A stretch of DNA of 64,000 nt. Origin: a virus. A model generated the notes under the pieces. That model searched no databases. It was not told where the DNA came from and saw nothing but the letters and a program-made list of their open reading frames with translations. Every line of letters starts with the position of its first letter. Positions within the stretch are counted from its first letter, which is position 1. The position numbers and the translations under genes were made by a program. The stretch spans positions 64,001 to 128,000 of IMG/VR virus record IMGVR_UViG_3300026521_000527. The stretch is one strand, 5' to 3'. Below, one piece after another: positions 5,263-55,513 of this stretch.

Positions 5263-5349
5263 TTTATTTCCTTTTGATAATATATTTTGATGTTTTGGTA
5301 TTCAGCGTATTAAAATTATTAAAATTAATGAGAAAATCTGGGCACAGGA

Positions 5350-5385
5350 AATCGGAGTGGTTGGCTTAAGCCAACCACTCCGATT
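5350..5385. repeat. Perfect 36-bp palindrome downstream of folE, flanked by GGCACAGGAA
   Basis: aatcggagtggttggctt|aagccaaccactccgatt read directly. Confidence 0.95.
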
Positions 5386-5396
5386 ATTTAAATTAT

Positions 5397-6407
5397 TTAA
5401 AGGTCTTTTCTAAACTCTTCATCATTATATAGTCCGCCGTATCTCTCAGATGTAAAACAACCATCTTTTGATTTAGCCCCTCTTATGCTTTCACATGTGT
5501 GGACTATATTATTTAAACGAACATAAACATTTTCTGTTCCAGCTGCCTCAGAAACCTTTTTATAAATTTCTTCAGTAAGTTCTTCTTGCAACCAACCTCT
5601 TTGTCCAACCCAATCAACTATTCTTTGTAATTTACTAATTCCAAGAACGTTATCTTCTGGAACATAAGAAATTATTGCATAAGCATCTTCTCTAAATGTT
5701 GATGAAAAAGGAGCAGCATGATGACTACAAACTGCAGTTAAATCAACACGTTTTGTAATTCTATGTTTGATTTTATTATTATTTGGAAATGTTGCCATTC
5801 TTGGAGGTTTGCTCCATCTCCCACTCATTAACTCTCTATCGTCTGTTGTTGATGCACCACACCACATTTTAGCAATTCTTTGGGCAGTTCCAATATTACC
5901 TGTTTCCAAATCGCTCATTACATTTGGATCACTGAGGTCAATTTTCATAGCTCTGAATGATTCCTCAATAAGTTTACCAGTTTTATATCTCATAATAAAA
6001 TGGGCTTCATCTGTCCATTTATAATCTTGCTCAAATATATTTTCATTTATTTTAAAAATAGGAGCCTGCTTATAAGTCTGCAGAGCTTTTGCAAATCCAA
6101 CCACCGTGTTAAATTTGCGATGATATGCCTCAAGTATCTCAAAGAATTCGATAACTTTAGGGTTCGGACTATCTGTTTCATAAAGTTCAATTACTTGATC
6201 TATGATCGGGTTCCCAAACTCAGTGTAATAACCTCTAGGTAAATATAATGTATAGGAATTATTTTTTTTATCGAACTCAATATTTTCCCAAGGTTTATAA
6301 AAATTATTTAATCTAATTTTTACATTATCAGATGATTCTATATGATCTTGGGTACAGATTCTATTTTCCTGTTTTTCAGGAAAATAGATTATTTCAGTAA
6401 CTTCCAT
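5397..6407 (-). CDS. folE: GTP cyclohydrolase I with ~120-aa N-terminal extension
   Basis: DPN...TAQRIAKMW, CSHHAAPF, GISKLQRIV...LQEELT, HTCESIRG. Confidence 0.92.
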   Translation of the reverse strand: MEVTEIIYFPEKQENRICTQDHIESSDNVKIRLNNFYKPWENIEFDKKNNSYTLYLPRGYYTEFGNPIIDQVIELYETDSPNPKVIEFFEILEAYHRKFNTVVGFAKALQTYKQAPIFKINENIFEQDYKWTDEAHFIMRYKTGKLIEESFRAMKIDLSDPNVMSDLETGNIGTAQRIAKMWCGASTTDDRELMSGRWSKPPRMATFPNNNKIKHRITKRVDLTAVCSHHAAPFSSTFREDAYAIISYVPEDNVLGISKLQRIVDWVGQRGWLQEELTEEIYKKVSEAAGTENVYVRLNNIVHTCESIRGAKSKDGCFTSERYGGLYNDEEFRKDL

Positions 6408-6418
6408 TTAAGTTTCCT

Positions 6419-6853
6419 TTACTCTGCTTCTGTTGCTTCTGTTGCTTCTGTTGCTTCTGTTGCTTCTGTTGCTTCTGTTGCTTCTGTTGCTTCTGTTGCT
6501 TCTGTTGCTTCTGTCGCAGCCATTAAAATTTCAATCACACTTTCAAGAACCTGTTTGCCTTCTTCTTCAGTATACTCATCTGGACCTGCAAAATCAAGTG
6601 TGCTTAGATTCTGGTTGTCGTCAAAATTTAATATAATTTCACAAGGGATTTGTGCATCCATGTGTAGTTTAGAAACAACATTGAATACCATAACATCTTT
6701 ATTATCCCTAGTTTCTTTTTGGGCAGCAATTATATAAACACCAGTTTTTTCCATAGCCTCCATTATTTCAGGATTCTCGATAAAAGGTGCAGACCCATCC
6801 ATTTGATAAGAATCCATCTCTACTTTATTTTCAACATTTTCAACATTTTCCAT
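6419..6853 (-). CDS. Acidic hypothetical protein with (ATE)10 C-terminal tail
   Basis: 144-aa ORF with RBS-like AAAGGA upstream; tail encoded by a 9-bp tandem repeat. Confidence 0.75.
   Translation of the reverse strand: MENVENVENKVEMDSYQMDGSAPFIENPEIMEAMEKTGVYIIAAQKETRDNKDVMVFNVVSKLHMDAQIPCEIILNFDDNQNLSTLDFAGPDEYTEEEGKQVLESVIEILMAATEATEATEATEATEATEATEATEATEATEAE
6426..6515. repeat. Tandem 9-bp repeat (gcttctgtt) x10, in-frame
   Basis: Nine identical units plus one single-mismatch unit. Confidence 0.95.
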
Positions 6854-6864
6854 GATAATTCCTT

Positions 6865-7446
6865 TTAATTTAATTGTGCTTCTGGTGCAGTTAACATGCT
6901 ACCAATACCATGATTTCTATAGAAATCAAAATTCATCGTGCCGATAGCCAACACTTTCTGTACTTGTTCCAAATAACTACAAAAAGTTTCGATCTGAAAT
7001 AAAGACTCAATTTCAAATAATGTTTGATTTCCCTTATGTAAAATATTAAAAACTATTTTATCTTTATTAGGAAATCTAATGTATGCTGGTTTTTGATAAC
7101 CAGCATACTCCTCTAATGTACTCGATCCAATTAATATAAATGATGTATTCGAAGCATTTTCAATTATCTCCTTTCTAAGTTTAATTGACTGAATTAATTT
7201 TATAATATTTGCCAAATCCAATTCTATTGTCGGTTCATCTCTAAGATCCCGAGGAATTATATTTGGTGAAGATTGTTTGGAAAATCTCATGATTAGACGA
7301 CCGACTTCATATTGCAATTTAAAATTAATTATAAATTGACAACCCTCATCTGAATGGAATCCTTCAGTTGATCCATAAACTGGAAAATTACCGAAATGAA
7401 GATTACTTTTAAGAGTAATTTTTTGGGAGGTTTTAGATGAAGACAT
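6865..7446 (-). CDS. Hypothetical protein, possibly Whirly/PC4-like ssDNA-binding fold
   Basis: Two beta-rich-then-helix units (GRLIMRFSKQ...TIELDLANIIKLIQSI; IVFNIL...LFEIESLFQIETFCSYL). Confidence 0.3.
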   Translation of the reverse strand: MSSSKTSQKITLKSNLHFGNFPVYGSTEGFHSDEGCQFIINFKLQYEVGRLIMRFSKQSSPNIIPRDLRDEPTIELDLANIIKLIQSIKLRKEIIENASNTSFILIGSSTLEEYAGYQKPAYIRFPNKDKIVFNILHKGNQTLFEIESLFQIETFCSYLEQVQKVLAIGTMNFDFYRNHGIGSMLTAPEAQLN

Positions 7447-7487
7447 AATTTACTTCTTCATATTATTTAAAATCTTTGTCATTAGAT

Positions 7488-10136: not shown

Positions 10137-10189
10137 AATTTTCCTTTAGCTTTAACTATTTGCTTTAATATTTTTATATACTGTTTAAC

Positions 10190-10221
10190 TTGGACTAGAG
10201 TGATTAATCACTCTAGTCCAA
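10190..10221. repeat. Perfect 32-bp loopless palindrome upstream of queD
   Basis: ttggactagagtgatt|aatcactctagtccaa. Confidence 0.95.
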
Positions 10222-10338
10222 GGCTAGTTTAAAAATCTTTTATATTGATAAATTTAAAAACATTATGTTGGTTTCTGACTGACTCTTTCTTTTTTGATTT
10301 AATTTTAATTAATTTAAAAAATATTTTATTTATGAATT

Positions 10339-11214: not shown

Positions 11215-12148
11215 TCATATCCTTTTCTTTAAAACTTTTAAAATTCAAATCTTCTTTTGTATATTTTAACATTGATTCAGCAACTAGAGAATTCAATTCT
11301 ATTAAATTTTCTGTTAATGTTTCCGGGCTGTCTTTTATTGGACTTCGATCAATTAAAAAAGTAGTTCTAAATAACCGTTGAATTTTTTTATACCCCAAAA
11401 AATTATTTAAAAACTTCTGTCGATGTAAAAATATATGAGTACCGGCCTGTTTTTTTTCTAGGATCATTATATCTTTTGATAGATATATATCTCTAAAAAG
11501 TGATATATTTTCATTAGTATTATTTATAAAATTTAAAATAATATCTTTTACTTCATTGAATGTGTAAATTGCGTCTCTCCCAGTTGGTCCACCGAAATTA
11601 ATAAACCCAAAATCATAAAATATTTGATTTAGATTTGCAGCCATACCGCCGGTTGATGTTGCCAAATCATCTGTCTTTTTTGATCCACCATAAATTGAAA
11701 ACTTTTGGCTAATTTCGAGCAATCCACTATCAAGCATTTCTCTAAGAAGTTTATTATCAATAATCAATAAATTATTTCCTGGAGAGTCGAAAGTTGTAAT
11801 TTTTTTACTATCGAATAAATGTTTTCTGGAAAGAACTTCTGCAGCAATAGTATTTACAACTAATTGCTCATTTTTAAATTTTTCAATAGGCGTCCAAGTA
11901 TTTGGTAAATTATCAACTTGCGCATTTGAATTTACTACAAACTTTTTAAGAGCTTCTCTAATTGTCGTTCTTTTTAAAGTCAAAAGTTTAAAAAGTTTTC
12001 TAAGGATTTTTGTAGCGTGTTTTGACGAGGTAATCTTTTTAAAAGCCATTTTAATTCCAAGAACTTCACCTCTTAATAGTGAAGTTGATACTAAAAGAAG
12101 AAGTTCATCTTCAGTTGGCTCCATTGTTGATTGGCTAATTGTACTCAT
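11207..12148 (-). CDS. Hypothetical helical protein, paralog of 10339..11214
   Basis: GIKMAFKKITSSKHATKILRKLFKLL and HLFDSKKITTFDSPGNNLLIIDNKLL align by eye with the neighbour. Confidence 0.7.
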   Translation of the reverse strand: MSTISQSTMEPTEDELLLLVSTSLLRGEVLGIKMAFKKITSSKHATKILRKLFKLLTLKRTTIREALKKFVVNSNAQVDNLPNTWTPIEKFKNEQLVVNTIAAEVLSRKHLFDSKKITTFDSPGNNLLIIDNKLLREMLDSGLLEISQKFSIYGGSKKTDDLATSTGGMAANLNQIFYDFGFINFGGPTGRDAIYTFNEVKDIILNFINNTNENISLFRDIYLSKDIMILEKKQAGTHIFLHRQKFLNNFLGYKKIQRLFRTTFLIDRSPIKDSPETLTENLIELNSLVAESMLKYTKEDLNFKSFKEKDMNE

Positions 12149-12166
12149 GTTTATCCTTTGATTAAT

Positions 12167-13390
12167 TTACTCTATAATTCCGTTTTTAATGCCAGATCCA
12201 TCATAATAAGATGAAATGATTTTTTTAACTTCATTATGAATTTCAAATGTTTCTGTTGCAACATCACTCTTTAAAATTTTTAGAAGACGTTTGATTAAAG
12301 TTAGATTATTAACCATTTCATTCGCTAGTCGACCTAGATTAAATACTGGACTATATCTTTTAAAGTCATCAGATGTCCAATTCATTAATTCTTCCAATTC
12401 GATATTGTCTACAAGTTCATCTGCGAAATGCATAACACTTTTTATATTCAATGAAATTATTTCGACAAATGTTTGATTTGAAACATTTCCTTGAATTAAC
12501 TCATTCTTGAATTCATTAATTTCGTCTTCTGTTAAACTATCAAACTCACTATGATGTTCAATCATTTTTGTCATTTCATTTAAATCATTTATCACATCAA
12601 ATGACATATCTGTTTTCAATACCATTGGTGTTTTATATTTTATCGGACTAAATCGAATAACCTCTGAACTATCCATAGTAATTTCTATATCAAAAAGTTT
12701 TTCGAGTATTCTTCCAGTAATTAAAGCAACTCTTGAACTCTGACCAAGCATATGTATATGTTTCGGTTTTATTCCTTTTTTCTGCAAATATGTCATTAAC
12801 CAGATTGTCATTGGCACGAAATGATTAAAATGAACTCTAGTTTCAGACTTTAATCCAACCAGGCCGCCGAATGAATACCTATCAAAATATTTATAACATT
12901 CGGTTGAATCCATTAATTGAAGCCAATCGTCGAGTAATTCTGGTGTCCTACTCTGAACGACAAAAATCTGTTTATCTCTAAGTTCAGAATATTTTTTATG
13001 CAATAAAATACTTTCAGTTATACTGTACTCATTGTACTTTAAAATTTTTGATTTATTAAACTTAGGATTATTTATATCCAGAGTAAAAATATAATCAATA
13101 TTGCCCCTAAATTTTTCAAGAATAAAATGATAAACATCAGTGTATTCTCTTAATCTTCTTTCTGTTATATGACCAGTAATTATCTGATATCCACCACTAT
13201 CCAAATATAATTTCATATTCGGTAATCGTTTGACTTCAATTTTATTCATCTGGCGGGCAATATCTTGTAAACTCCAACCACGAGCTGTGGTTGGTTCGGC
13301 TATCGAAACTAGATAATCATCAAAATGATGAACAACTGGTTTTATAGTTGATTCGGAAGGTGCGACACCAAGAACTGCAACATATTTCAT
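12167..13390 (-). CDS. dpdA: TGT-family transglycosylase, probable DpdA (7-deazaguanine insertion into DNA)
   Basis: LYLDSGGYQ, FTLDI, VVQS, SFGGLVG, HMLG, TMDSS follow the TGT barrel motif order. No C-terminal CxCxxC Zn site. Co-occurs with que genes. Confidence 0.75.
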   Translation of the reverse strand: MKYVAVLGVAPSESTIKPVVHHFDDYLVSIAEPTTARGWSLQDIARQMNKIEVKRLPNMKLYLDSGGYQIITGHITERRLREYTDVYHFILEKFRGNIDYIFTLDINNPKFNKSKILKYNEYSITESILLHKKYSELRDKQIFVVQSRTPELLDDWLQLMDSTECYKYFDRYSFGGLVGLKSETRVHFNHFVPMTIWLMTYLQKKGIKPKHIHMLGQSSRVALITGRILEKLFDIEITMDSSEVIRFSPIKYKTPMVLKTDMSFDVINDLNEMTKMIEHHSEFDSLTEDEINEFKNELIQGNVSNQTFVEIISLNIKSVMHFADELVDNIELEELMNWTSDDFKRYSPVFNLGRLANEMVNNLTLIKRLLKILKSDVATETFEIHNEVKKIISSYYDGSGIKNGIIE

Positions 13391-17436: not shown

Positions 17437-17470
17437 ATTTTCTCCTATAAAAATTAAGCACAGAAGGTGC

Positions 17471-17557
17471 AGGCTATGTTGGTTCAAGATATGTTGGTTT
17501 ATAAACCAACATATCTTCCGAAGGAATAAAATTCCTTGTTATAAACCAACATAGCCT
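17471..17557. other. Nested inverted repeats containing a perfect 32-bp palindrome, flanked by GCACAGAAGG
   Basis: Outer arms 17471-17484/17544-17557; aagatatgttggttta|taaaccaacatatctt at 17486-17517; small hairpin 17521-17537. Confidence 0.9.
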
Positions 17558-18588: not shown

Positions 18589-21210
18589 TTATACTTTATT
18601 AAATTCTGGATCTACACCTTTTGCTTGTAGAAATCTATCTAAATCTTTCACATAACTTTTTGCTCCAGTATAAGAATAATAATGCATATTTGCTCGCATG
18701 TTTTTTTCCCGAGATGATGAAACATTACCGTCGTCACTCGATTGTGACGCATGAATTATATCAAGTGCTCCTTTTGCGCCCTGTTGCCAAGCCATATACA
18801 CATTTCTTAAATTCGCAGGTAATCCATGATTATTTAGATATTTAATAATGTACTTTTCGCGTTCAGCGCACATTCTATCCTGATTCTCCGGAGTCCATAT
18901 TTCAGGACTATTTGGATCCAATCCAATTTTTTTAGCGTACTCGTTTGCAGTACCATCTAAAAATTGATACGCTCCTCTAGCACCTGTTGTTGGATTTATC
19001 GCTTCGTATCCTTCAGGAACATTACCCGCAAGTCCAGTTGATTCAACTTTAGCAATTTCCGCACAATAAACTCCAGCTGATATTTTATCTAGAGTTTTTG
19101 ATGAACCATTACCTTCAATTCTAAAAGCTCCAGCAAATTGCTTATCCCAATATGCTACACGATTACCTCCTTTACCAGTAGTGTATCTTTTTTCAATACT
19201 TGCTCCTTTACATGGATTTGATTTGGTACAAGAACTTGCTGGACGATATGGAGTAACTCTAGAACTACTTGCCATAACTTCAGTTTGACTTTTAGCAATC
19301 CCAACATGATGCACTCGATTAATATCAGCAGTTGTAGATAAAAATATAATATCTCCAGCTTGAACTTCATCATAATCTATTGGGGACGCATATCGTCTAC
19401 ACCAATCTGCTTGTGCCTGCGAACCTTTTGGAAAAGCATCTTTTGACATTCTCCCACCATATTTTTTTAAACCAGTTGCTAAACACACAGAGGTCATTAC
19501 AAAACCACTACAATCATACCATCCAGATTCAGCACCACCCCAAAGATATCTAAATCCTTTTTTAATTAAGGCTTCCGCTGTTTTAGCAATATCATTTGAT
19601 GTTCCTTTTATATTCAATTGCCCATTATAAGGAGAACCAGCACCATATATAACACCATTTATAGAAACACTTCCAGTTGATGGATTAATAGTTTCTATTA
19701 TATTATTCTTTAATTTGGATATCTGTTTAGAAATATCTAGAAGTATATTGGTATCTTGAGGTTCAACATTCTCAGTCATTAAGAACTCAATCTTAGCTTT
19801 ACATTTAAATGTTTTTTGATTATCTTCATTATTAGTCTCGCTTTCAAAGAATGAAATAGTTTCGACTACAGTTGGTGTGAAAACCCACTCAATTCTATAA
19901 GCAGGCCCTTTTCTAGCATTTTCAATAACAGTATTATCTTCACTAATAAATTTATCTTTAAAAAGGGCTTTTTTTATATCCAAATGTCCCCAGGCAATAT
20001 TATCCACTTCATAAGTTTCATAATTAGGGTTCATTTCATAATACTTTCTAAAATAACTTAATTGTTTAATTAAATCATTCTCAGATAAAAAAGAATATAT
20101 TCTTTTTACTTTTGGGTTAGGAATTTGCTTAACTTGTAGATGATCCCCACATGAAATATACTTTTCAGTGATTTTATTAATTGATGTTGAATCAATTATG
20201 GTTGGTACATTATCCGATGTCTGGACTAATTGAATTAAAGGATCTTTTGAATTAGATTCAAATTTTAATTTATCAAAATATGGTCTATCCTCTATTTTAC
20301 TGATTTTAAAATATCTAGCTTCGTCCAAATATGTTTGATGTCTAGGTCTAATCAAAGGTGTAAGAAATTTATCTTCTTCCCATGACCGAGGAATATAAAA
20401 ATCAGTTACAATTAGCTCTGTTGAGTTTTTTGAATTTAATGGCAAATCATCTTGAATCCAATTAAAAGGCGTAAGATATGGAGGGTAATTTTTAAAAAAT
20501 TCTTCTAGAATTTTAAAATTATTATCTGATTTAAATACATAACCGCTTGTTGGAATAGAGGTTGATATTGTTTTTAAATCGGTTGAACTATCATTCATGT
20601 AAATAAGATGAGTTGAGTTCGAACTCAACTCATCTGAATTTTCTATATAATCACCATAACCTTCGGTTCCCATTTTAGGAGATACTTTTGAACCATAATT
20701 AGTGTATGTTTCTAAAAATATTTGCTCTATGTGTCCGAGCAAAAATATACGTGGATTTGATTTACCATATTTAAGACTGGTTTGACTAGTAAACCCAAAA
20801 TTATTTTCAAGAAGCATTCTTCCAAGAGTCCAAGATATAAGTCTTAAGTTCACAGAGTATAAATTATTTCCACCAATTCTTTTCGTTTCAATTTTTCCCA
20901 TCTCCTCAATTTTAAAAACATTACTACTTGATGAAAGATTCGTGGTATCTGTATTGTCTTTTTCATGAATATAACCAGATGTTATTGTAATTGATATTGA
21001 ACACCCACCGGATGTAATTATATTTAACTGATCTATAGTTAATAATTTTAATTCTAGATATAGTTCAGTTTTATGAGATTCATAAGACTTTAAAACTCTA
21101 AGTTCATTGATGTTGTAATGAGTTAAATCAAACTCTTTTATTTGGCCATTTTCTTTTGAATCTATAACTTCATGAATCTTAATTTTCAGATCATTAAAAT
21201 AGGCTTGCAT
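18589..21210 (-). CDS. Tail/baseplate-associated peptidoglycan hydrolase (NlpC/P60 + lysozyme-like domains)
   Basis: YLWGG...YDCSGFV, GDIIF, HHVGI (NlpC/P60); ES.G..Y.AIN..TGARGAYQFL, PENQD, AWQQG (lysozyme-like); long N-terminal region. Confidence 0.8.
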   Translation of the reverse strand: MQAYFNDLKIKIHEVIDSKENGQIKEFDLTHYNINELRVLKSYESHKTELYLELKLLTIDQLNIITSGGCSISITITSGYIHEKDNTDTTNLSSSSNVFKIEEMGKIETKRIGGNNLYSVNLRLISWTLGRMLLENNFGFTSQTSLKYGKSNPRIFLLGHIEQIFLETYTNYGSKVSPKMGTEGYGDYIENSDELSSNSTHLIYMNDSSTDLKTISTSIPTSGYVFKSDNNFKILEEFFKNYPPYLTPFNWIQDDLPLNSKNSTELIVTDFYIPRSWEEDKFLTPLIRPRHQTYLDEARYFKISKIEDRPYFDKLKFESNSKDPLIQLVQTSDNVPTIIDSTSINKITEKYISCGDHLQVKQIPNPKVKRIYSFLSENDLIKQLSYFRKYYEMNPNYETYEVDNIAWGHLDIKKALFKDKFISEDNTVIENARKGPAYRIEWVFTPTVVETISFFESETNNEDNQKTFKCKAKIEFLMTENVEPQDTNILLDISKQISKLKNNIIETINPSTGSVSINGVIYGAGSPYNGQLNIKGTSNDIAKTAEALIKKGFRYLWGGAESGWYDCSGFVMTSVCLATGLKKYGGRMSKDAFPKGSQAQADWCRRYASPIDYDEVQAGDIIFLSTTADINRVHHVGIAKSQTEVMASSSRVTPYRPASSCTKSNPCKGASIEKRYTTGKGGNRVAYWDKQFAGAFRIEGNGSSKTLDKISAGVYCAEIAKVESTGLAGNVPEGYEAINPTTGARGAYQFLDGTANEYAKKIGLDPNSPEIWTPENQDRMCAEREKYIIKYLNNHGLPANLRNVYMAWQQGAKGALDIIHASQSSDDGNVSSSREKNMRANMHYYSYTGAKSYVKDLDRFLQAKGVDPEFNKV

Positions 21211-22053: not shown

Positions 22054-22094
22054 ATTTTTCCTTTTATATTATTATTTAATTTATTTAAAAAATG

Positions 22095-22126
22095 ATTAAT
22101 GAGTGAGTCTAGACTCACTCATTAAT
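22095..22126. repeat. Perfect 32-bp loopless palindrome overlapping the polB-exo stop codon
   Basis: attaatgagtgagtct|agactcactcattaat; a T-run follows on the minus strand, so it is terminator-like. Confidence 0.95.
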
Positions 22127-23162
22127 CCAATAAAGGAAAGAATATTTCCCTATTGAATTTTTTGACACGAGTTATTTTAGACTGTTTTGTATAAATTAAA
22201 TTATTTCTATAACTATACATTCTGCTTCTTCCAGAGACTGCCGCACTCATTGGACTTGTATTATATTTAGTCAACATCCAAACCTGCTCCATAAATTCTA
22301 ATTTTTCATCAATTTTAAATGTCAAAATAGTATCTAGAAGGTTGTATGTTAAAAATCGAACTATGTTGTTTATGTACTCATAATTCATATCCTCCAAATC
22401 CAATTTTGTAATTCCAAGTTCTTGCATTGCTACAGTACCCAATTTATAATTTGGTAATGATGAACCGAGACCGCTTCCACCTTGATCAACTGGTTTATAT
22501 AATTTTAATAGATCAATTAATAGATAATCCGGCCAATCATAATTATTATCTGAGAATTTATGAACCTCATTAAATTCAGAAATAAAACTATAAATGCTAT
22601 CGCCTGCTAATCTATGTCCTCTGTTTACAACATAAGGGTCATCAAAAATACTACTATTAAACCCAATAAGAAAAAGAGGATTATTACTCCGAGTATCTAA
22701 GAAGAACTCTTTTAAGAGTTCTTCTTCACTCTGAAATGTTCTAATTTCTAACTCCATTCCAGGAACTTCATAAACCGGATTTTCTTTAATTAATTCATTA
22801 TATAATTCTTGAACCCCAGTTTTTAATACACTTGCTTCTGTTATATTTGAATTATATGGTGTACAATAAATAATAGCTTTATTTAATAAGTTATTATACA
22901 CTGCAATTGAATTAACAGGATAGTCAACTCTTACCGCATCAGGAAATACCTCAGGATCATAATGAACCTCAATATCATAATATGACTTATTAAGTGTTTT
23001 TTTGACTGGATCGCTCTCCTTAAACTTAGTCATGAAATCTTGAAATTCACTCTCATCTGGGCTCAATTCTAGATTATAAAACTGGTGAAATTTTAATTCA
23101 CCAGTTTTAAGTGACTGCATCATCTTATAAAGATCGCCAGAATTTAATTTATATTTATCCAT
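22122..23162 (-). CDS. polB: Family B DNA polymerase, N-terminal 3'-5' exonuclease fragment
   Basis: YDIEV (Exo I), IGFNSSIFDDPY (Exo II), IDLL.LYK, YKLGTVA..EL, YNLLD (Exo III). Confidence 0.87.
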   Translation of the reverse strand: MDKYKLNSGDLYKMMQSLKTGELKFHQFYNLELSPDESEFQDFMTKFKESDPVKKTLNKSYYDIEVHYDPEVFPDAVRVDYPVNSIAVYNNLLNKAIIYCTPYNSNITEASVLKTGVQELYNELIKENPVYEVPGMELEIRTFQSEEELLKEFFLDTRSNNPLFLIGFNSSIFDDPYVVNRGHRLAGDSIYSFISEFNEVHKFSDNNYDWPDYLLIDLLKLYKPVDQGGSGLGSSLPNYKLGTVAMQELGITKLDLEDMNYEYINNIVRFLTYNLLDTILTFKIDEKLEFMEQVWMLTKYNTSPMSAAVSGRSRMYSYRNNLIYTKQSKITRVKKFNREIFFPLLD

Positions 23163-33316: not shown

Positions 33317-33350
33317 ATAGTGAGAGCAATCATGCTTGTGCTCTCACTAT
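33317..33350 (-). terminator. Stem-loop with U-rich tail (terminator-like)
   Basis: atagtgagagc/gctctcactat arms, followed on the minus strand by ctttttatttt. Confidence 0.6.
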
Positions 33351-33355
33351 AATTA

Positions 33356-33383
33356 TTTATATACTTAATTGATTTATTCTAAA
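33356..33383 (-). promoter_or_regulatory. Bipartite motif TTTAGAATAA-N8-AGTATATAAA, copy 1
   Basis: Both 10-bp boxes identical at 45421 and 53757. Confidence 0.55.
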
Positions 33384-33400
33384 CTTAGATTTAAAATATA

Positions 33401-35374
33401 TTAATCATTAAACTCCATACCAATTAATTTTAATGCAGTGTTCACAGCACGTTTTGTCAGTGAACTATATTTTGGATTTAAATCATATCCACCGTCGGTT
33501 ACATATCTAAGAATAAATGTTTCTTTTTCTGTTACAGTGCTATCTGACTTAATTGTATACAACTCTTTTAACATACCATTCTTCTCTTTATGAGCTAAAA
33601 GCGCAGCTAGTGTTTGCCAACTGATATGTTGCCCACCTTGCTTTTTTCTACCTCTTGCCGGCTGCCCAGTGATTTTACTATAGCTATTTGCAAAAGATAC
33701 TGAAGTGTATTTGCTATAACTAGTATGATGTAATTTTAACCAGTAGTTTGATCCAATAAATCCTTTAATAGTTTTCGAGTACACCTGATCACCAAATACT
33801 CTATTTTTATAATGCCATTTATCTCTCAACCATTTTATTAAATCTTCTGAAATTTCAACTTCTTCTTTGCCCATAAATATACCGAAATACGAACCATATT
33901 TATCAAGAAATTCATCAAAAAATTCTTTATATTTTAATTTATTAAAATTACTAGAATATAAAAAGAAACCATTCTTTTTAACATCCTCTAAAAAATCTTC
34001 AAAGAGTTCTTTTTGACTCAAAAGCTCTTGAACTTTTTTGTAATAATCCTCATCTATTTTTTTAATGTAATGTTCATTTATAAACATTACTCTTTCTCTA
34101 ATAGCTTCTTGATCTTCTACTTTAGATTCAACATCTTCTATGATCTTGCTCAATCCAAGTTCAAAAACACTCCCCCAATTATTTCTACCAAATATACCAA
34201 GAGGATTAAAAATTGCATCAACACCAGCAGGCATTAATTCATCCGGAATAATCATAGAAATTACACCTTTACCTGCATATAAATTAGTGAATTTATCACC
34301 TCGAGTACTTCCAACGGTAATTGCTATATCGACTTCCAGTAAAAAATCAACTTCAGTAGGATCCAAACCGAATTCGTCTTTCAATTTAGTATCAAAAGAC
34401 TTTGGAAATTTATCAACACCATAATAACTAGAATATATTTCTTCTGTTAATTTTAAATTTTCTTCATCACTTAATCCTATCGATTTAAACGTCTCTTGTA
34501 ATTGATTTTTAAATACGATATTATTATTATAAAAAGTCTCAATCTCTCGAATAAGTCCTGGTGTATAAATATATTCTTGATCGAGTTCTACAAAACTCTT
34601 CTTATTATTTTTATGAACTTTGACTGATTGTATATTACCACCAAGAATACCTTTTATATTTTTGGTAAAAAATAAAGATTCTTGTGAACTTAAGTTTTGT
34701 ATTTCAGACACAAAGTGTTCACTGGTATCTATATTAAAAAATTTTATATATTCTTCAATATCCATCACTTGTCCAGGCGAGAAGAAATATTGATCCATCC
34801 CGTTCCTTAGATATTTCCATTTCTTAGTCACCGGAATAAATAATTTTTGAGAGTATGAAATTTGAGCTCGTCTAGCAAATGATTCAGATACGACTAAAGC
34901 ATCATCCGAAGTATATCCAAAAAAGCTACTAAATAATATTTTGGTCCTGTATCCTATTCTAGGCATCTTTGATTCCGGATTCATATTAGTATAATCAAAA
35001 AGAAGTTCTCCTTTTTTAATTGGCCCAACTGGTGCGATATATTTTACACCGAGTGAAAGGTTAACCATTTTTTTAAATTTCGGGACATGTTTAGATACCA
35101 GTTTTTTTAAACTGGTATAATAAATAATAATAGTCTCTCTGCTTGAAAGAATTACATAACCATCATCTTGGGCAATTTGACTAAAAGGAGAATCAACTTC
35201 AGATATACCTAAATAATTTTTGTCAATTATAAATGGTGTTTCTGTTAAATTACTAACACATGCTTGCGTCTGCTGTTTACTTGACATATTTAACCTTGAC
35301 GCTTCCACCGAGTTCGCAAACGATGTAAATGTTTCAATTTGAGGACTAAATAAAACTAAATTCTTTTTTTCCAT
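33401..35374 (-). CDS. rpoB: Phage multi-subunit RNA polymerase, beta subunit C-terminal piece
   Basis: RLNMSSKQQTQA, GYTSDDALVVS, GDKFTNLYAGKGVIS, IFNPLGIFGRNN, YWLKLHH, GQP..GR...GGQ. Confidence 0.9.
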   Translation of the reverse strand: MEKKNLVLFSPQIETFTSFANSVEASRLNMSSKQQTQACVSNLTETPFIIDKNYLGISEVDSPFSQIAQDDGYVILSSRETIIIYYTSLKKLVSKHVPKFKKMVNLSLGVKYIAPVGPIKKGELLFDYTNMNPESKMPRIGYRTKILFSSFFGYTSDDALVVSESFARRAQISYSQKLFIPVTKKWKYLRNGMDQYFFSPGQVMDIEEYIKFFNIDTSEHFVSEIQNLSSQESLFFTKNIKGILGGNIQSVKVHKNNKKSFVELDQEYIYTPGLIREIETFYNNNIVFKNQLQETFKSIGLSDEENLKLTEEIYSSYYGVDKFPKSFDTKLKDEFGLDPTEVDFLLEVDIAITVGSTRGDKFTNLYAGKGVISMIIPDELMPAGVDAIFNPLGIFGRNNWGSVFELGLSKIIEDVESKVEDQEAIRERVMFINEHYIKKIDEDYYKKVQELLSQKELFEDFLEDVKKNGFFLYSSNFNKLKYKEFFDEFLDKYGSYFGIFMGKEEVEISEDLIKWLRDKWHYKNRVFGDQVYSKTIKGFIGSNYWLKLHHTSYSKYTSVSFANSYSKITGQPARGRKKQGGQHISWQTLAALLAHKEKNGMLKELYTIKSDSTVTEKETFILRYVTDGGYDLNPKYSSLTKRAVNTALKLIGMEFND

Positions 35375-38695: not shown

Positions 38696-38731
38696 TGGAG
38701 TTCAGAGGCACTCCAGTGCCTCTGAACTCCA
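38696..38731. repeat. Perfect inverted repeat, 17-bp arms, 2-nt spacer
   Basis: tggagttcagaggcact-cc-agtgcctctgaactcca, 5 bp from the rpoB-N stop codon. Confidence 0.95.
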
Positions 38732-40381: not shown

Positions 40382-40613
40382 CCAAAGTCTCCGAATTTGG
40401 TAATGACTTTTTCAGAATATACTGATAGAATTCATCAATTTCTGATTGAAGAAAATTAACCCTCGCTCTTTTTATAATAGTAGTTTTATTCCAATGAAGT
40501 TTAATTATATTCTCTGGATAAAGCTTAGATATTTTAGTGGGTATTTTAGATTGATCAACATATTCAATATCTACTTGATAAATTGAATCATTTATAAATT
40601 TCGAGTAGATCAT
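40374..40613 (-). CDS. Small hypothetical protein
   Basis: Start moved to MIYSKF to limit the overlap with rpoC-C. Confidence 0.5.
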   Translation of the reverse strand: MIYSKFINDSIYQVDIEYVDQSKIPTKISKLYPENIIKLHWNKTTIIKRARVNFLQSEIDEFYQYILKKSLPNSETLDD

Positions 40614-42561
40614 GATACATGTGCTCCACTGATACATCAGTTGATTTTGTATAAATTTTACTAATAGCTCTATTACTAAAATTATAAAAAATACTTAATT
40701 TTGGATCTAGCATTTCTATAATATTTTTTAAAGCGATTTGTCTAGTCGGTTCCTTATCACTATATCTATAAAGAACATCATCTTCATCATAATATAAAAG
40801 ACTTATAATAAGTTCTAGATAAACACTTAAAATATCATTTTGCTCTATAACAACTGATAATTTATCATATAAAACAGAAGGGTCTATTAAAGCAGCTCCA
40901 TCTCTATTTTTATCAATTAAAGATGTAATTGAGTTTAATGTTTTAACTGAATCATCATTAAAAGGTTGATTAATTACATTAAATATTAGAGTTATTTTGG
41001 ACTCTTCTTTAGAAATATCTATTTCAATATCATCATCTGTATAAATATTTTTTAAATAATTTAATATATATTCTAATTGATCTTCAAGAGTTCCAATTGA
41101 CTCATTTTCTTTTTCCAAAATAATTTCTTTCTCTGAAAATTTAGCTTCTCTTAAAATACTTAGAAGTTTTTTATCCTCAGTTGCAATAAAAGCTCCACCA
41201 AAATGGTGAGTCCTAAGAACGGATTGTATAATACCCTCAGATAATCCTGATCCAATAATTGCCCCTAAGTTTACACTATCCGGTATCTTTGAACCAAAAC
41301 ATTTTTTACAGATTTTATATCCACTATGTTTACATGTAATTGGACTCCTTATTAAGATATCTAGACCAATCAGAGATTCATCATTAATATCTATTTTTTC
41401 TTCCTGTCCAGTAGAGTCATTAAACCACCATCTATGATTTAAAAGCTCAAGGATTGTTTTATTCTTAATATTTATTTTAAAATACTTATCAGTTCCGCAA
41501 TCTTCAAGATCTTTATCCAGTTTTAAAATACCCGTGGTGAAGAAGAATTTTCTTTGTAGTTCGCCTCCTTTTGGAATTGCTTCCTGTCTTTGAGCCAGCG
41601 CCAATCTAGCGCTATCTCCTGTCATAAAATACTCTTCTTCCGTTAAACCATCAAGTAAAGAATTTTCAATATTTGCTTTAAACGCTTTTCCATAGATATC
41701 CGTAGGAATACCAGTATTCGATGCAGCCTTCAGTAATTGAACCGATTTTAATCTTGCCCCACTATTGAATACAAGATTCAATATATTATTGGGATCTTCT
41801 TCCACTGTATTTTTAACCTTTTCAAAAAGTATTAAATTTTGATGAAACGCTAAAAATGGTTCTTCTTTAAATAAACTACTTCGTATATCATCTATTTCTT
41901 TATTACCAACTGCAAAATCTTTCAAATCGAAAGAAGGATTGCAGTGTGTTATAACTGTACTGCATTCTAAAAGAAATTTATCAAACTCATGTATATTCAA
42001 CCAGAAGTCAAACTCAATGCCTCTTGAATTTAAATCTTGAACTATAGCCCAAAATCTCTCAGTTAACTTTAAAAGATTTTTTTTATTTAGAACGCCATCT
42101 TTTTCAATTTCGTAGAATGGCTCACCGAGCAATTCCACAGAATTTTCCAATTCACCGAATAAAGAAATATGGATTAACCATTCAATATAAGAAAGAGTTC
42201 TATTGAACTCTTTGATGTGAAATTGTCTACCAGGTTCTGATTCAACCAAATTAATATCAGCAACTAGTTCATCTAATGTATTTAATTCAACTATTTCTCT
42301 ATCTGGGAATTGAGCTAGATTTTCTTTTGCTCGCAAAGTTAACATAAAAGCACTATAAATTGATTCATGTTCATAGTCAATTAATAATTTATCCATGTGC
42401 TCAAATTCAATAAGATTTTTCACAAAGGCGTACTTAAAATCAGCTCGTGCTTGTTTTGAATGCATAGCGGCTGCAATAACATTATCACCATCATGATCAC
42501 TATTATCAAATTGTGACATTAAATTTGATTTCTCAATTACTTGATTGCTTCCTATAATCAT
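40588..42561 (-). CDS. rpoC: Phage multi-subunit RNA polymerase, beta-prime C-terminal piece (catalytic loop, bridge helix, trigger loop)
   Basis: FDNSDHDGDNV (NADFDGD variant), GGELQRKF, EDCGT, RSPITC...CKKCFG, SEG..QSVLRTHH.GG. Confidence 0.9.
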   Translation of the reverse strand: MIIGSNQVIEKSNLMSQFDNSDHDGDNVIAAAMHSKQARADFKYAFVKNLIEFEHMDKLLIDYEHESIYSAFMLTLRAKENLAQFPDREIVELNTLDELVADINLVESEPGRQFHIKEFNRTLSYIEWLIHISLFGELENSVELLGEPFYEIEKDGVLNKKNLLKLTERFWAIVQDLNSRGIEFDFWLNIHEFDKFLLECSTVITHCNPSFDLKDFAVGNKEIDDIRSSLFKEEPFLAFHQNLILFEKVKNTVEEDPNNILNLVFNSGARLKSVQLLKAASNTGIPTDIYGKAFKANIENSLLDGLTEEEYFMTGDSARLALAQRQEAIPKGGELQRKFFFTTGILKLDKDLEDCGTDKYFKINIKNKTILELLNHRWWFNDSTGQEEKIDINDESLIGLDILIRSPITCKHSGYKICKKCFGSKIPDSVNLGAIIGSGLSEGIIQSVLRTHHFGGAFIATEDKKLLSILREAKFSEKEIILEKENESIGTLEDQLEYILNYLKNIYTDDDIEIDISKEESKITLIFNVINQPFNDDSVKTLNSITSLIDKNRDGAALIDPSVLYDKLSVVIEQNDILSVYLELIISLLYYDEDDVLYRYSDKEPTRQIALKNIIEMLDPKLSIFYNFSNRAISKIYTKSTDVSVEHMYHDLLEIYK

Positions 42562-42605: not shown

Positions 42606-42640
42606 AAGTATTTAATGAGCAAAAAGCTCATTAAATACTT
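42606..42640. repeat. Perfect inverted repeat, 15-bp arms, 5-nt spacer, mostly inside the 3' end of a CDS
   Basis: aagtatttaatgagc-aaaaa-gctcattaaatactt. Confidence 0.9.
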
Positions 42641-45214: not shown

Positions 45215-45412
45215 ACAATAGGAACCCCGTCCCTCTCAGGCCAGTGAACTATCCAAGTACTACCGATTTCAGTTTATCCTGAACCATTTCCATATTTCTT
45301 ATACTTCTTTTGATTCAGGGACCTACTCACGATAGGACCCGATACCACACCACCATCCAGATGACGAGGATCCGTCCACGATTAGTACCCTCCGATATCT
45401 AACCGCTTCTAA
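45215..45412 (-). ncRNA. Candidate structured non-coding RNA of unknown class
   Basis: GC-rich island without an ORF; nested long-range helices, a GNRA-capped hairpin and many G-U pairs on the minus strand; promoter-like motif upstream and U-run downstream. Confidence 0.55.
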
Positions 45413-47931: not shown

Positions 47932-47963
47932 ATATTTCCTTTATTATTTTGATTGGGCACGGA

Positions 47964-47996
47964 AGGGGATAGGGTGCATAGTGCACCCTATCCCCT
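47964..47996. repeat. Perfect inverted repeat, 15-bp arms, 3-nt spacer, flanked by GGGCACGGAA
   Basis: aggggatagggtgca-tag-tgcaccctatcccct. Confidence 0.95.
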
Positions 47997-50149: not shown

Positions 50150-50190
50150 AATCTTCCTTTAAAAATAAAATAAAATAAAAATAAAATAAA

Positions 50191-50216
50191 AATAAAACCC
50201 CAAGAGGGGTTTTATT
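50191..50216 (-). terminator. Intrinsic terminator
   Basis: aataaaacccc-aaga-ggggttttatt followed by a long (TTTTA)n run on the minus strand. Confidence 0.75.
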
Positions 50217-50701
50217 TATTGTGGTAGTGCAAAGACAATAGCAAAACTATTTTTAACTGTTGGTTTAATGCCAGCAATAATATCATTTTCCAACTTACGA
50301 ATGAAAGCATAAGCTAGATTTTCAATCGGAATTTTAATTTTGAATGGTTTATCATTGCTATCCTTTCCGGATGATACAATTATAGATAACTGTTTTGATT
50401 TTTTATGTATTTTTACAACTTCTAAAATCAATACTTTCTTAAATACATTTGGCTCCTTTTGTGATTTTAATACAATATAAGGTTTGGGGAAATTTGCATC
50501 AAATAAATTCTCTTTAATAAAAGAAGATTCATAGATGCAATTGATAACTTCATTATCAATTGCAGAGTCTTCAACTATTTTTCCATCTTTTAATTTAAAA
50601 GAGACTATACCCTGCTCGACACGGCATTTAAGATACTTTCTCAGTGATTTGAATAGTTTCTTATCAGCTTTTGTAAGTTTAATAAAATCATTGTTTTTCA
50701 T
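50216..50701 (-). CDS. Paralog-family protein, single domain (copy B)
   Basis: Termini near-identical to 49667..50149. Confidence 0.8.
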   Translation of the reverse strand: MKNNDFIKLTKADKKLFKSLRKYLKCRVEQGIVSFKLKDGKIVEDSAIDNEVINCIYESSFIKENLFDANFPKPYIVLKSQKEPNVFKKVLILEVVKIHKKSKQLSIIVSSGKDSNDKPFKIKIPIENLAYAFIRKLENDIIAGIKPTVKNSFAIVFALPQ

Positions 50702-52083: not shown

Positions 52084-52116
52084 TGGATGGCTCTTCAGAC
52101 TCTGAAGAGCCATCCA
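52084..52116. repeat. Perfect inverted repeat, 16-bp arms, 1-nt spacer
   Basis: tggatggctcttcaga-c-tctgaagagccatcca, 1 bp from a stop codon. Confidence 0.95.
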
Positions 52117-53430: not shown

Positions 53431-53488
53431 GGATATTAATGTAATGTATGTGTGTATGTATGTGTCGAAATTAGAATTCTAGTCTAGA

Positions 53489-53671: not shown

Positions 53672-53690
53672 GTAATATCCTTTAAAAAAA

Positions 53691-53749
53691 ATTAGACGGA
53701 AGAGTTGATTTCTTAGCAAAAAAATCAACAGATAACTCTTCCGTCTAAT
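53691..53749. other. 16-bp perfect inverted repeat with 27-nt structured spacer
   Basis: attagacggaagagtt / aactcttccgtctaat; a T-run follows on the minus strand, just before the RBS. Confidence 0.9.
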
Positions 53750-53756
53750 AATATTA

Positions 53757-53785
53757 TTTATATACTATCCGAAAGTTATTCTAAA
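53757..53785 (-). promoter_or_regulatory. Bipartite motif TTTAGAATAA-N9-AGTATATAAA, copy 3
   Basis: Intergenic; boxes identical to copies 1 and 2. Confidence 0.55.
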
Positions 53786-53801
53786 ATATATTTTGATAGT
53801 T

Positions 53802-55439
53802 TTATTCGATTGAAACTATATTAAGCATTAATTTTCTACTGGATCCAAAAGTATCTTCACCTAGCTTAAAATATATAGAATATTCTTTATTAATCTCAGG
53901 TACTTCCGATGTAAAAAACTTCATCGCTTTGAACTTAATTAATTTATTTTTATCGGATAACTCCAAACTAAGATGATTTTTACCTTTACCTATTAATTTG
54001 GCTTTTGTAATTATTGCTTCTGTTCTGAAAATTGGTCTCTCATAATCTTTTCCAAAAGGTTCAAACATTTTCAATGAATCATACAATGAAATATCTAGAT
54101 AATTGAACGGAATAAACCCTATTGATTTTATATCGGATTTAAACATTTCCTTGGGAATTCTTGCGCTTTTATCTAGTAATTCTTTATAAAAATTATCAAA
54201 ATTTTCTAAAGTTACCGTTATCCCCAAAGCCTGTTTATGTCCACCAACTTGCTTAACGTATTTATTATCTCTAAGAATTTCAAGTATATTGATTTTTCCA
54301 GCGGTTCGTCCACTACCAGAATACTCTTGGGTATCCGGATTAAAATTAAAAACTATTGCTGGCTTATTATATTTCTCTACAAGTTTTGATGCAACAATTC
54401 CTGCTACACTTTTATATTCTTTATGAAATCTTCCAGGAATAATTATAAAATCTTTATCAAAATATTGTCTGTAATGTTTTTCAACGTATTCAAATAAATC
54501 ATTTTGAATTTTTTTGCGTGTATCATTGACCTGTTTTAAATAATTGAACCACTCTAAACTTTTTTCCTCAGTTTCTTGAATCATAAATAGGGCACCGTGA
54601 TCTGCCTTTGTAATTCTTTGAGTAGCATTTATCATCGGAGTTAGATTAAAAGCAATGTCCTCGGCCGTTGGGGAATCGGATACAAACTTTCTAAATGTTT
54701 TAAAATAAATTCTTTCAATTGAGTTCTTTTGAACTCCAGTGGTTAAACTTTTTACCACAAATCTATTTAGATGTCTATCAATAGGCATCACATCACTTAT
54801 TGTAGTTAATCCTAATTCAGGTAAGAATTCATTAAATAAATTAACATTTAATCCAAGACGTTCACAAATTGCCTTTAAAAAAAACCACAATACAAACGTT
54901 CCACTAATATCTTTATATTTAAAATTGTCTCCAGGTATGTGTGGATCGACTATTGCTGGTGTATCAGGTAACCCCAATTCTAAATCTGGTTGATGGTGAT
55001 CTGTAATTATAACATTCGCTCCCATTTCACGAGCTTTCCTAGTTGCATCAACACTTGTAATTCCATTATCTGCAGTTATGTATAAACTAACATCTTCAGT
55101 TACATGCGATGGTAAAAATCCATAACCTTGCTTTCTATCAGTTATTATAAACTCAACATATTGATACTTAAAATGTTTTAAAAAGAAATTCCAAAAAAGT
55201 GTATAAGTTCCTAATCCATCACAATCACTATCACATATGCATTTTATTTTCTTATTATTACTAATTGCTTCGACAAAATAATCAACAGCTATTTGCATAT
55301 TCTTTAAATCAAAAGGATCTGGGAATTGATCCAATGATTCAATCTGATCTGGGTGTAATTTATTTTTTAAAATTTCTTCAATATCATCAATTGAATTAAT
55401 TATTATTTCTTTTTCTTTTTGCGTAGTATTATTGTCCAT
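53802..55439 (-). CDS. recJ: Single-stranded-DNA-specific exonuclease RecJ
   Basis: CDSDCDG, TADNG, ITDHH, GSGR, GGH..ALG, EPFG. Confidence 0.93.
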   Translation of the reverse strand: MDNNTTQKEKEIIINSIDDIEEILKNKLHPDQIESLDQFPDPFDLKNMQIAVDYFVEAISNNKKIKCICDSDCDGLGTYTLFWNFFLKHFKYQYVEFIITDRKQGYGFLPSHVTEDVSLYITADNGITSVDATRKAREMGANVIITDHHQPDLELGLPDTPAIVDPHIPGDNFKYKDISGTFVLWFFLKAICERLGLNVNLFNEFLPELGLTTISDVMPIDRHLNRFVVKSLTTGVQKNSIERIYFKTFRKFVSDSPTAEDIAFNLTPMINATQRITKADHGALFMIQETEEKSLEWFNYLKQVNDTRKKIQNDLFEYVEKHYRQYFDKDFIIIPGRFHKEYKSVAGIVASKLVEKYNKPAIVFNFNPDTQEYSGSGRTAGKINILEILRDNKYVKQVGGHKQALGITVTLENFDNFYKELLDKSARIPKEMFKSDIKSIGFIPFNYLDISLYDSLKMFEPFGKDYERPIFRTEAIITKAKLIGKGKNHLSLELSDKNKLIKFKAMKFFTSEVPEINKEYSIYFKLGEDTFGSSRKLMLNIVSIE

Positions 55440-55482
55440 CTTTATTATTTTCCTTAATGATAAATTTTAAGCACAGGAGGGT

Positions 55483-55513
55483 TAGAGTGTTGTGGCTTAG
55501 CCACAACACTCTA
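55483..55513. repeat. Perfect inverted repeat, 15-bp arms, 1-nt spacer, flanked by GCACAGGAGG
   Basis: tagagtgttgtggct-t-agccacaacactcta, overlapping a stop codon. Confidence 0.95.

Follow-up and report, generated by a model that had tools for sequence, protein, structure and literature searches.

Why do the gene ends of an AT-rich viral genome carry long, perfect palindromes, and are these read as DNA or as RNA? The question is posed by a stretch of 64,000 nucleotides (hereafter, the window), which corresponds to bases 64,001–128,000 of the 136,864-bp viral contig IMGVR_UViG_3300026521_000527, has a GC content of ~29% and carries every gene on the minus strand. Coordinates follow the numbering of the window unless marked as "contig", in which case the numbering of the whole record is meant. 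An earlier inspection of the letters alone (the sequence-only reading) had listed nine perfect inverted repeats, all of which are present, and had missed three of the same kind, at 20606–20635, 29572–29607 and 31817–31850. From comparison with related sequences, the subset followed by a conserved motif most likely serves to stop transcription, as a signal peculiar to this phage lineage. The explanation as a whole, comprising terminators with a decayed U-tract, young motif-less hairpins and a DNA-level origin of the palindromes, is given a probability of about 0.55.

The palindromes form a genuine family. A scan for inverted repeats against a shuffled background, as proposed in the sequence-only reading, returned 31 perfect hairpins with arms of at least 13 nt and loops of at most 8 nt over the whole contig, compared with 0.15 per second-order Markov shuffle. 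Folded as RNA, the palindromes reach −19 to −31.5 kcal/mol, with z-scores of −5.7 to −9. Their placement is equally distinct: for 14 of the 20 palindromes with arms of at least 15 nt, the centre falls between −25 and +60 nt relative to a stop codon, in a zone making up 8.1% of the genome (p = 1.4e-11), which bears out the claim that most abut or overlap a stop. The other six lie inside coding sequence, four of them 21–89 nt downstream of a start codon that has a good ribosome-binding site (start codons were checked by eye), and perfect palindromes with arms of 11–14 nt also occur inside genes. With 131 genes called in the contig and ~20 long palindromes, ~15% of the junctions bear a hairpin. 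The proposed near-constancy of length is weak, because arms span 11–20 nt without a gap. GAGTG recurs in four of the nine palindromes, as stated; the long palindromes are all unique in sequence and every stem differs. L002 and L004, independently made assemblies of a relative, contain identical hairpins, which argues against an assembly artefact. Of note, three close relatives (L007, L008 and L009, ~12,048–12,313) carry the same perfect hairpin after a polymerase gene, with one loop-proximal pair changed on both sides from G-C to A-T.

Some of the palindromes are directly followed, on the coding strand, by a strand-specific tail consisting of a pyrimidine tract and TGTGC. The strict form of this tail, YTYY(T)GTGCY, occurs ten times in the contig. 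All six intergenic sense copies (window 5341, 17457, 47956 and 55470; contig 12720 and 21783) lie 0–5 nt past a stem, and the remaining four are found in coding sequence without a hairpin, three of them antisense. The motif is thus enriched beside palindromes genome-wide, as the sequence-only reading had asked to be checked; given ~31 hairpins per 137 kb, our own arithmetic yields a chance probability near 1e-11 for six of ten copies within 25 nt of a stem. A further copy, TTTTCCTGTCTCC (contig ~128,190), follows an imperfect hairpin just past the end of the window, and a variant follows the palindrome at 29572; in all, eight contig sites combine stem and tail (window 5350, 17486, 47964, 55483 and 29572; contig 12682, 21751 and ~128,160). 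The tail is strictly confined to the transcribed strand: its orientation changes with that of the genes over four strand blocks, and does so in three genomes. At six sites, it is located 20–90 nt upstream of a ribosome-binding site and start codon, and the copy at contig 21751 marks the end of a block of plus-strand genes, at a convergent junction with no gene downstream.

Most sites of this phage lack a U-tract (~5 or more U within 8 nt) after the stem, the tails being C/U mixtures. Among the long palindromes at 40–60 kb, only the one at 52084 passes a hairpin-plus-T-run scan, and loosely so; the short hairpin at 50190–50217 (minus strand) also passes, and with its 12-bp stem, GGGG/CCCC core and long T-rich tail it provides the contrast of an ordinary-looking terminator. 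The claim that the palindromes are not ordinary intrinsic terminators accordingly holds in that they are phage-specific and not of the textbook type, although we still read them as intrinsic-type signals. The claim that the motif stands in place of a U-tract needs refinement: in relatives, the motif comes after the U-tract (TTTT, then CCTGTGC) and is thus no substitute for it, and in this phage a C/U tract, probably a decayed U-tract, takes that position.

These relatives were found only through protein alignment. No close cultured phage was identified, and neither a megablast of the 44–56 kb region against cultured phages nor a first protein scan of viral contigs gave matches. Metagenomic relatives with 50–63% identity in one polymerase subunit sit on contigs of 270–290 kb; the contig studied here, with a CheckV completeness of 49%, therefore represents about half of a jumbo-phage genome of ~280 kb. 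Two relatives were used for comparison, namely G001 (281,455 bp, 100% complete, 62% identity in the polymerase subunit) and G002 (272 kb, 97% complete, ~49% identity). In G001, the strict motif is present in 15 copies, compared with 0–1 for a reversed-pattern control, and ~30 hairpins are built as A-tract, stem and T-tract (TTTT), followed at 0–1 nt by CCTGTGC or CCTGTCY on the transcribed strand. Two of them face each other where genes converge near 147.8 kb. In the more distant relative G002, which uses TTTTTTTGTCG, hairpins end in a T-run and then TGTCG. Both G001 and G002 thus have the U-tract of intrinsic terminators. With the looser pattern YYTGT[GC], sites adjoining a hairpin amount to 30 of 185 in sense versus 20 of 444 in antisense orientation in G001 (p = 3e-6) and to 48 of 152 versus 14 of 297 in G002 (p = 4e-14); 32 (G001) and 38 (G002) of the hairpin-adjoining sites lie at most 120 nt after a stop codon on the same strand. 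The distance from stem to tail is fixed, whereas that from the tail to a promoter-like box, AACAAAGAT, varies between 1 and 16 nt in G001, which indicates that the tail belongs to the hairpin and not to a promoter.

Comparison of the 3′ ends of orthologous genes with G001, performed for five motif-bearing and five motif-less or variant-tail sites, separates the two groups. In G001, all five motif-bearing sites (contig 12682 and 21751; window 5350, 17486 and 47964) are matched by a hairpin, which in four cases comes with a T-tract and a (CC)TGT tail; each of these stems is unrelated in sequence to the one found here. Conversely, none of the five motif-less or variant-tail palindromes (22094, 29572, 38696, 42606 and contig 53164) has a counterpart. 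Conservation also extends to one intragenic case, a palindrome of 40 bp located ~60 nt into a 233-aa gene (contig 6643): at the corresponding position, the orthologue in G001 forms a strong hairpin of its own, with CCTGTGC.

The individual motif-bearing sites of the window, all on the minus strand (arm length/spacer in brackets), confirm the flank motif that had been noticed beside four palindromes. The candidate terminator hairpin at 5350–5385, a 36-bp perfect palindrome (18/0), lies 11 nt past the stop codon that ends the GTP cyclohydrolase I gene (−30.6 kcal/mol, z −9.0) and has its tail, TTCCTGTGCC, directly 3′ of the stem on the coding strand (plus-strand positions 5341–5350); the gene end of the G001 orthologue forms a hairpin followed by TTTTTTGTCT. 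At 17471–17557, a Y-shaped structure (−51.2 kcal/mol, z −8.0) consists of a 15-bp outer stem around a small hairpin and a nested 32-bp perfect palindrome (16/0; 17486–17517), with the tail CTTCTGTGCT 5 nt past the outer stem (17457–17466). Its counterpart in G001 is a perfect palindrome with 13-bp arms that spans the stop codon. The 33-bp palindrome at 47964–47996 (15/3), likewise a candidate terminator, is found 4 nt after the stop of a 290-aa gene, upstream of QueC, and has the tail TTCCGTGCC at its stem (47956–47964); the orthologous junction of G001 carries a different hairpin plus TTTCCTGTCT. The 31-bp palindrome at 55483–55513 (15/1) starts at the stop codon of a 168-aa gene, upstream of a RecJ-like gene, and its tail, CTCCTGTGCT, lies 3 nt past the stem (55470–55479). 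A variant tail, (CCC)TTCTGTACT at 29558–29565, reading TTCTGTAC, is found 7 nt past the 36-bp perfect palindrome at 29572–29607 (18/0), which has the stop codon of an amidotransferase-QueC-like gene at its centre; the G001 orthologue ends without a hairpin.

The remaining palindromes, on the same strand, lack the tail. A 34-bp perfect palindrome (17/0) at 10189–10222, with the core GAGTGA-TTAA-TCACTC, occupies a 202-nt spacer, 52 nt before a QueD-like gene. Another of 34 bp (17/0) at 22094–22127 overlaps the stop of a 346-aa gene and is followed by ATTTTTT without TGTGC, the gene end of the G001 orthologue having no hairpin. At 38696–38731, a 36-bp palindrome (17/2) with the outer bases GAGTTC...GAACTC lies 5 nt after a stop codon, at a junction that is free of a hairpin in G001, and the 33-bp palindrome at 52084–52116 (16/1) lies 1 nt after a stop and is followed by AAAATTATTT. 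Two others involve coding sequence: a 30-bp perfect palindrome (15/0) at 20606–20635, deep in an 873-aa gene, is built on a GAGTT(G/C) word, and one of 34 bp (17/0) at 31817–31850 directly follows the stop of a 465-aa gene and lies within codons ~8–19 of the overlapping downstream gene, the G001 orthologue of which aligns through it without a gap.

The 35-bp palindrome at 42606–42640 (15/5), which contains the stop codon of a 185-aa gene, bears on the question of origin. Its left arm is conserved C-terminal coding sequence, and its right arm is an inverted copy of the left that adds a five-residue C-terminal extension and a new stop codon. The sole close relative to hand, L041 (a 4,975-bp contig of metagenome Ga0256828 with 82–87% nucleotide identity), allowed this one junction to be compared: it shows an unrelated perfect palindrome with 15-bp arms, which starts at the stop codon of L041 itself. 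Separately, L041 contains ~305 nt that are extra with respect to this phage (3675–3980, near window ~40,470), including a canonical hairpin-plus-T-run terminator.

Perfection is a general property of these structures. Among hairpins with at least 12 pairs, 41 of 45 in this phage and 50 of 58 in G001 are perfect, without an excess of G:U pairs, and the centre is fully palindromic in 16 of 31 and 11 of 38, respectively, compared with ~8% expected by our own estimate for unconstrained 4-nt loops at this base composition. An RNA hairpin needs neither Watson-Crick perfection nor a self-complementary loop, so perfection through the centre points to an origin at the DNA level. Orthologues mostly align through the coding palindromes without gaps, and these are therefore mostly not insertions. 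From this, we infer that inverted duplication or template switching within a strand may give rise to palindromes and maintain them, while selection retains the hairpin at some junctions.

The favoured explanation would combine three layers. At the motif-followed sites (window 5350, 17486 through its outer stem, 47964, 55483 and probably 29572; contig 12682, 21751 and ~128,160), the palindromes would be stop signals for the multisubunit RNA polymerases of the phage. The nascent RNA would fold into a 15–19-bp hairpin, at once followed by the pyrimidine tract and TGTGC; we infer that the pyrimidine-then-G steps of TGTG could act as a pause point, at which the hairpin would release the transcript. 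Relatives keep a normal U-tract, which here would have decayed to a C/U tract while stems became longer. As the next start codon is just 30–90 nt downstream, with no recognizable promoter, most of these stops must leak, acting as attenuators inside operons. The motif-less palindromes, at other junctions and in the first 20–90 nt of some genes, would be a second, young and lineage-specific layer. They probably also form RNA 3′-end hairpins, be it as hairpin-only terminators or as decay barriers, although this is much less certain, and an RNA-processing or DNA-level role may apply to them. In the third layer, inverted duplication or template switching of DNA would copy the 3′ end of a gene into an inverted arm and "correct" quasi-palindromes. 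It is the conserved tail, the U-tracts of the relatives and a likeness to phage phiKZ, detailed below, that lead us to read the motif-bearing palindromes as this lineage's version of the intrinsic terminator.

Several points weigh against this explanation. Most sites in the phage lack a U-tract, and a C-rich tract should strengthen the RNA:DNA hybrid, not weaken it. Several palindromes lie in coding sequence, where efficient termination would be harmful, and the motif-less ones are not conserved in G001. In the contig alone, the loose pattern YYTGT[GC] adjoins hairpins at 5 of 87 sense and 6 of 230 antisense sites, which is no difference, so that the strict motif and the relatives have to carry the case. 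The likeness to the phiKZ tail, YYGT, is short (4–5 nt), and the palindromic centres could reflect a function of the DNA itself. A bolder version holds that the pyrimidine tract plus TGTG(C) would be a sequence-specific termination element read by non-canonical polymerases and able to do without a U-tract given a very long stem, with hairpins continually made and perfected by palindrome-generating replication and linked to a phage-specific signature word (here GAGTTC-N4-GAACTC, different words in relatives) with a co-evolving factor; we consider this version rather unlikely.

Among the rivals, RNA processing or stability would make the hairpins cleavage targets of a ribonuclease that is specific for double strands or guided by hairpins, or else obstacles to 3′ exonucleases by which adjoining cistrons would acquire different half-lives, with the tail as the nuclease site. 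Precedents are the RNase III sites of T7, the repetitive extragenic palindromic (REP) stabilizers and the Mimivirus hairpin rule. The long, perfect stems (15–20 bp) come near the length that RNase III-type enzymes need, the sites are intercistronic with a very short gap to the next gene and no visible promoter, and the motif-less class has neither U-tract nor tail. Structure is moreover conserved without sequence, as under the Mimivirus hairpin rule (PMC4402537). However, there is no Pfam match to RNase III (PF14622, PF00636) in the fragment, in the complete G001 or in the 97% complete G002; the stems of relatives directly bear classic U-tracts, which processing would not need; cleavage of a perfect stem would sever both strands and abolish its protective value; and hairpins mark a minority of junctions, versus most genes in Mimivirus. 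Processing is thus a doubtful account of the family. The symmetry perfect to the centre in the 16 loop-less hairpins and the absence of G:U pairs would suit cruciforms or single-stranded DNA folds that serve replication, recombination, packaging or a structure-specific nuclease (EndoVII-like or SbcC-like), or else sites for dimeric proteins. An EndoVII-domain gene is indeed present in the window (57483–57701, minus strand, as are all window genes), and the GAGT word together with the 40-copy GAGTTC-N4-GAACTC array looks like a set of protein sites, each relative having its own word. Against such DNA-level elements, the arms are all different, so that no single sequence-specific protein can read them, the tail keeps to the transcribed strand, placement tracks stop codons, and arms of 15–20 bp are short for stable cruciform extrusion. 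This leaves a DNA-level function improbable as the general explanation.

Still less probable is that the palindromes are functionless by-products of template-switch-prone replication, or miniature mobile elements, that gather at gene ends because they are tolerated there. The rapid turnover, with a different palindrome at the same junction of the 82–87% identical relative, the absence of the motif-less sites from G001 and the perfect palindromes with arms of 11–14 nt inside genes are in keeping with it. Yet the coding palindromes are mostly not insertions, as judged from the gapless orthologue alignments, no match to the Y1 transposase family (PF01797) was found in the contig or in G001, and the uniqueness of each palindrome rules against a copy family. 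In addition, a palindrome with 15-bp arms is kept at one junction by two close relatives, which argues for selection of the hairpin, and the motif-bearing sites keep their position across 62% protein identity. Finally, we regard it as highly improbable that the hairpins are promoters for a phage RNA polymerase, similar to those of N4, with the motif as the start site, a possibility raised in the sequence-only reading. N4 promoter hairpins have a stem of 5–7 bp and a 3-nt loop, compared with stems of 15–20 bp here. The module also occurs at convergent junctions without a downstream gene (contig 21751; G001 147.8 kb), its distance to start codons and to the AACAAAGAT box is not fixed, and the stems of relatives end in T-tracts. 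What speaks for promoters is the location of the motif upstream of ribosome-binding sites and start codons at the six sites mentioned, along with the ability of the AR9-type polymerase to start from single-stranded promoters (PMC7598289).

The recurrence of GAGTG in the palindromes stems from a separate, genome-wide word. The 16-nt inverted repeat GAGTTC-N4-GAACTC occurs in the contig as 20 exact and 20 one-mismatch copies, compared with 1.3 expected. The exact copies are all located well within genes, occupy each of the three reading frames and do not represent insertions. Those of the window are found at 3967–3982 (core of a 28-bp palindrome at 3961–3988, where the orthologue aligns without a gap), 26322–26337, 26452–26467 (core of a 26-bp palindrome at 26447–26472), 30152–30167, 42195–42210 (in a gene for an RNA polymerase subunit, and conserved in L041, where the spacer differs), 54721–54736 (in the RecJ-like gene) and 57909–57924 (core of a 28-bp palindrome at 57903–57930). 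Several perfect palindromes with arms of 11–15 nt consist of the word core with extended arms (window 3961, 20606, 26447 and 57903; contig 6802 and 16399), and three long palindromes share a 6+4+6 layout around GAGTG(A/C). Between this phage and G001, the word does not keep its positions, with 1 of 20 sites shared; with L041, one site is shared. The spacer is A-rich on the sense strand (p = 2e-7 per nucleotide, which is just suggestive once the A-rich coding background and the non-independence within sites are taken into account). Relatives have words of their own: TTGCTC-N5-GAGCAA and GAGCAATTGCTC in G001 (47 sites; L012–L026), GATCTT-N3-AAGATC in G002 (75 copies; L027–L040), and ATAGTTAACTAT and AACTAT-N2-ATAGTT in G003 (45 copies, of which 40 are intergenic, in tandem arrays; L043–L051). 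No over-represented inverted-repeat word was detected in G005, a 75-kb fragment. An obvious guess is that the word is read by a phage-specific nucleic-acid-binding factor.

As to promoters proper, sigma-70-like sequences are not enriched (139 versus 127 expected). In G001, 24 of the 39 copies of the AACAAAGAT box lie at most 100 nt upstream of genes. This promoter-like box, in the form (T)CAACAAAGAT, resembles the late promoter of AR9, AACA-N6-TA (PMC7598289), and is found 20–35 nt upstream of ribosome-binding sites at 32–160 kb of G001 (e.g. L014 and L015) and, in the present contig, at 3830 and 33063, outside the window. A bipartite promoter-like motif, TTTAGAAT-N11-AGTATATAAATAAT, is present on the coding strand at 33249–33400, 45219–45250, 53729–53801 and 56711–56763, several times followed by a hairpin, and a similar box exists in G001.

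Regarding gene content, the window is predicted to encode split β/β′-like RNA polymerase subunits, by which the phage is one with its own multisubunit RNA polymerases. The respective genes (58613–63412, 33401–35374 and 40588–42561) have PHROG matches to β-subunit families and tblastn matches to jumbo-phage polymerase genes. The window further contains genes for 7-deazaguanine precursors, namely those of GTP cyclohydrolase I, QueD, QueC and the amidotransferase-QueC-like protein. Despite these, no match to a TGT/DpdA-family domain was obtained in the contig fragment or in the near-complete G001 and G002, and a link of the palindromes to 7-deazaguanine insertion enzymes was rejected on this ground. 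The modified base may enter before replication, or the pathway may serve another purpose. The ribosome-binding site is very uniform throughout the window, (T/A)AAAGGA(A/G) at 5–9 nt before ATG, which suggests a host with strong Shine-Dalgarno usage. A 33-nt unit is repeated in ~5 tandem copies within the coding sequence of the 465-aa gene (32650–32810). The contig end (136,650–136,864), ~8.7 kb past the window, consists of an array with a periodicity of 76 nt, in which an identical 46-nt AT-rich unit occurs three times, copies 1 and 2 each being followed by a GAGT-type palindrome; one of these palindromes recurs at contig 21852 and window 16702. No tRNA genes were found in the window, and an Rfam scan of the window (E≤1) gave just two chance miRNA-like matches, both on the palindromes themselves. 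A preQ1 riboswitch considered in the A-rich sequence after contig 21751 found no support, this stretch being outside the Rfam-scanned window.

Next to nothing is known of how transcription by the sigma-less, split multisubunit polymerases of jumbo phages comes to a stop, and the U-tract plus tail of a relative versus the C/U tract, tail and longer stems of this phage amount to a natural experiment on what a terminator needs. That one perfect palindrome is wholly replaced by another in near relatives suggests that regulatory hairpins may be born through inverted duplication of a gene 3′ end. The elements could also serve synthetic biology as terminators for phage polymerases.

Set against known systems, the palindromes part from several families of repeats. 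REP-like elements and miniature inverted-repeat transposable elements come in many copies of one family and with a Y1 RAYT/TnpA transposase, whereas each long palindrome here is unique and PF01797 had no match in the contig or G001, and N4-type promoters combine a short hairpin, a fixed distance and a downstream gene in every case, which differs from the present arrangement. The attC site of integrons is an imperfect palindrome with extrahelical bases, bounded by RYYYAAC ... GTTRRRY, whereas the stems here are perfect and the conserved motif is one-sided and outside the stem. Closer to the features observed is the correction of quasipalindromes by intra-strand template switching (Ripley-type mutagenesis), which would yield perfect palindromes including their centres, co-changes of both arms and inverted copies of a coding 3′ end. 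Rare mutations have been ascribed to this process, but it is not described as making regulatory hairpins throughout a genome.

Mimivirus shares an AT-rich viral genome, a viral multisubunit polymerase, and palindromes at gene 3′ ends that are conserved in structure and lack a U-tract (hairpin rule; Byrne et al. 2009; PMC4402537). It differs in that it encodes an RNase III-like nuclease and a poly(A) polymerase and has most of its genes covered (PMC4402537), whereas here RNase III was not found in the fragment, G001 or G002, only a minority of junctions bear a palindrome, and a sequence tail is present. The long-stem terminator TerR of pLS20, which resists processive antitermination (PMC10325885), likewise ends transcription units with stems of 15 bp or more, the length of which matters and not the sequence; in contrast to the palindromes, it has a normal A-tract and U-tract and acts on the host polymerase, and here no antitermination system is known. 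With Rho-independent terminators in general, the palindromes have in common a stable stem-loop that closely follows the stop codon in the transcribed strand, the T-tract in G001 and G002, and facing pairs at convergent junctions. They diverge in having stems of about twice the usual length (the average is 7–9 bp, and a 15-bp stem has been called extraordinary; PMC10325885), in the lack of a U-tract at most sites of this phage and in a conserved sequence after the tract.

The nearest parallel is found in phiKZ-like jumbo phages, whose conserved intrinsic terminators, mapped by long-read RNA sequencing, combine a hairpin with YTTATKYYGT behind it (Putzeys et al. 2024; PMC10914365); for the six phages in that work taken together, 28% of mapped terminators sit in the next gene (PMC10914365), and related terminator motifs exist in 201phi2-1 (PMC11512511). 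Both lineages have their own multisubunit polymerases and dozens of gene-end hairpins, some within the next gene, with a strand-specific tail that is U-rich and then YYGT. The phiKZ hairpin, however, is conserved in sequence, with a 7-bp C-rich/G-rich stem (CCYCCCC...GGGRRGG), whereas the stems described here, known from sequence alone, all differ, measure 13–20 bp and are perfectly palindromic, with a (Y)n-TGTGC tail in which a C/U tract replaces the U-tract. A short, strand-specific tail that is conserved across relatives at 50–60% protein identity and echoes the phiKZ consensus offers a concrete element to test. Two features go beyond the systems described so far: a conserved tail that survives the loss of the U-tract, and the very fast turnover of perfect palindromes.

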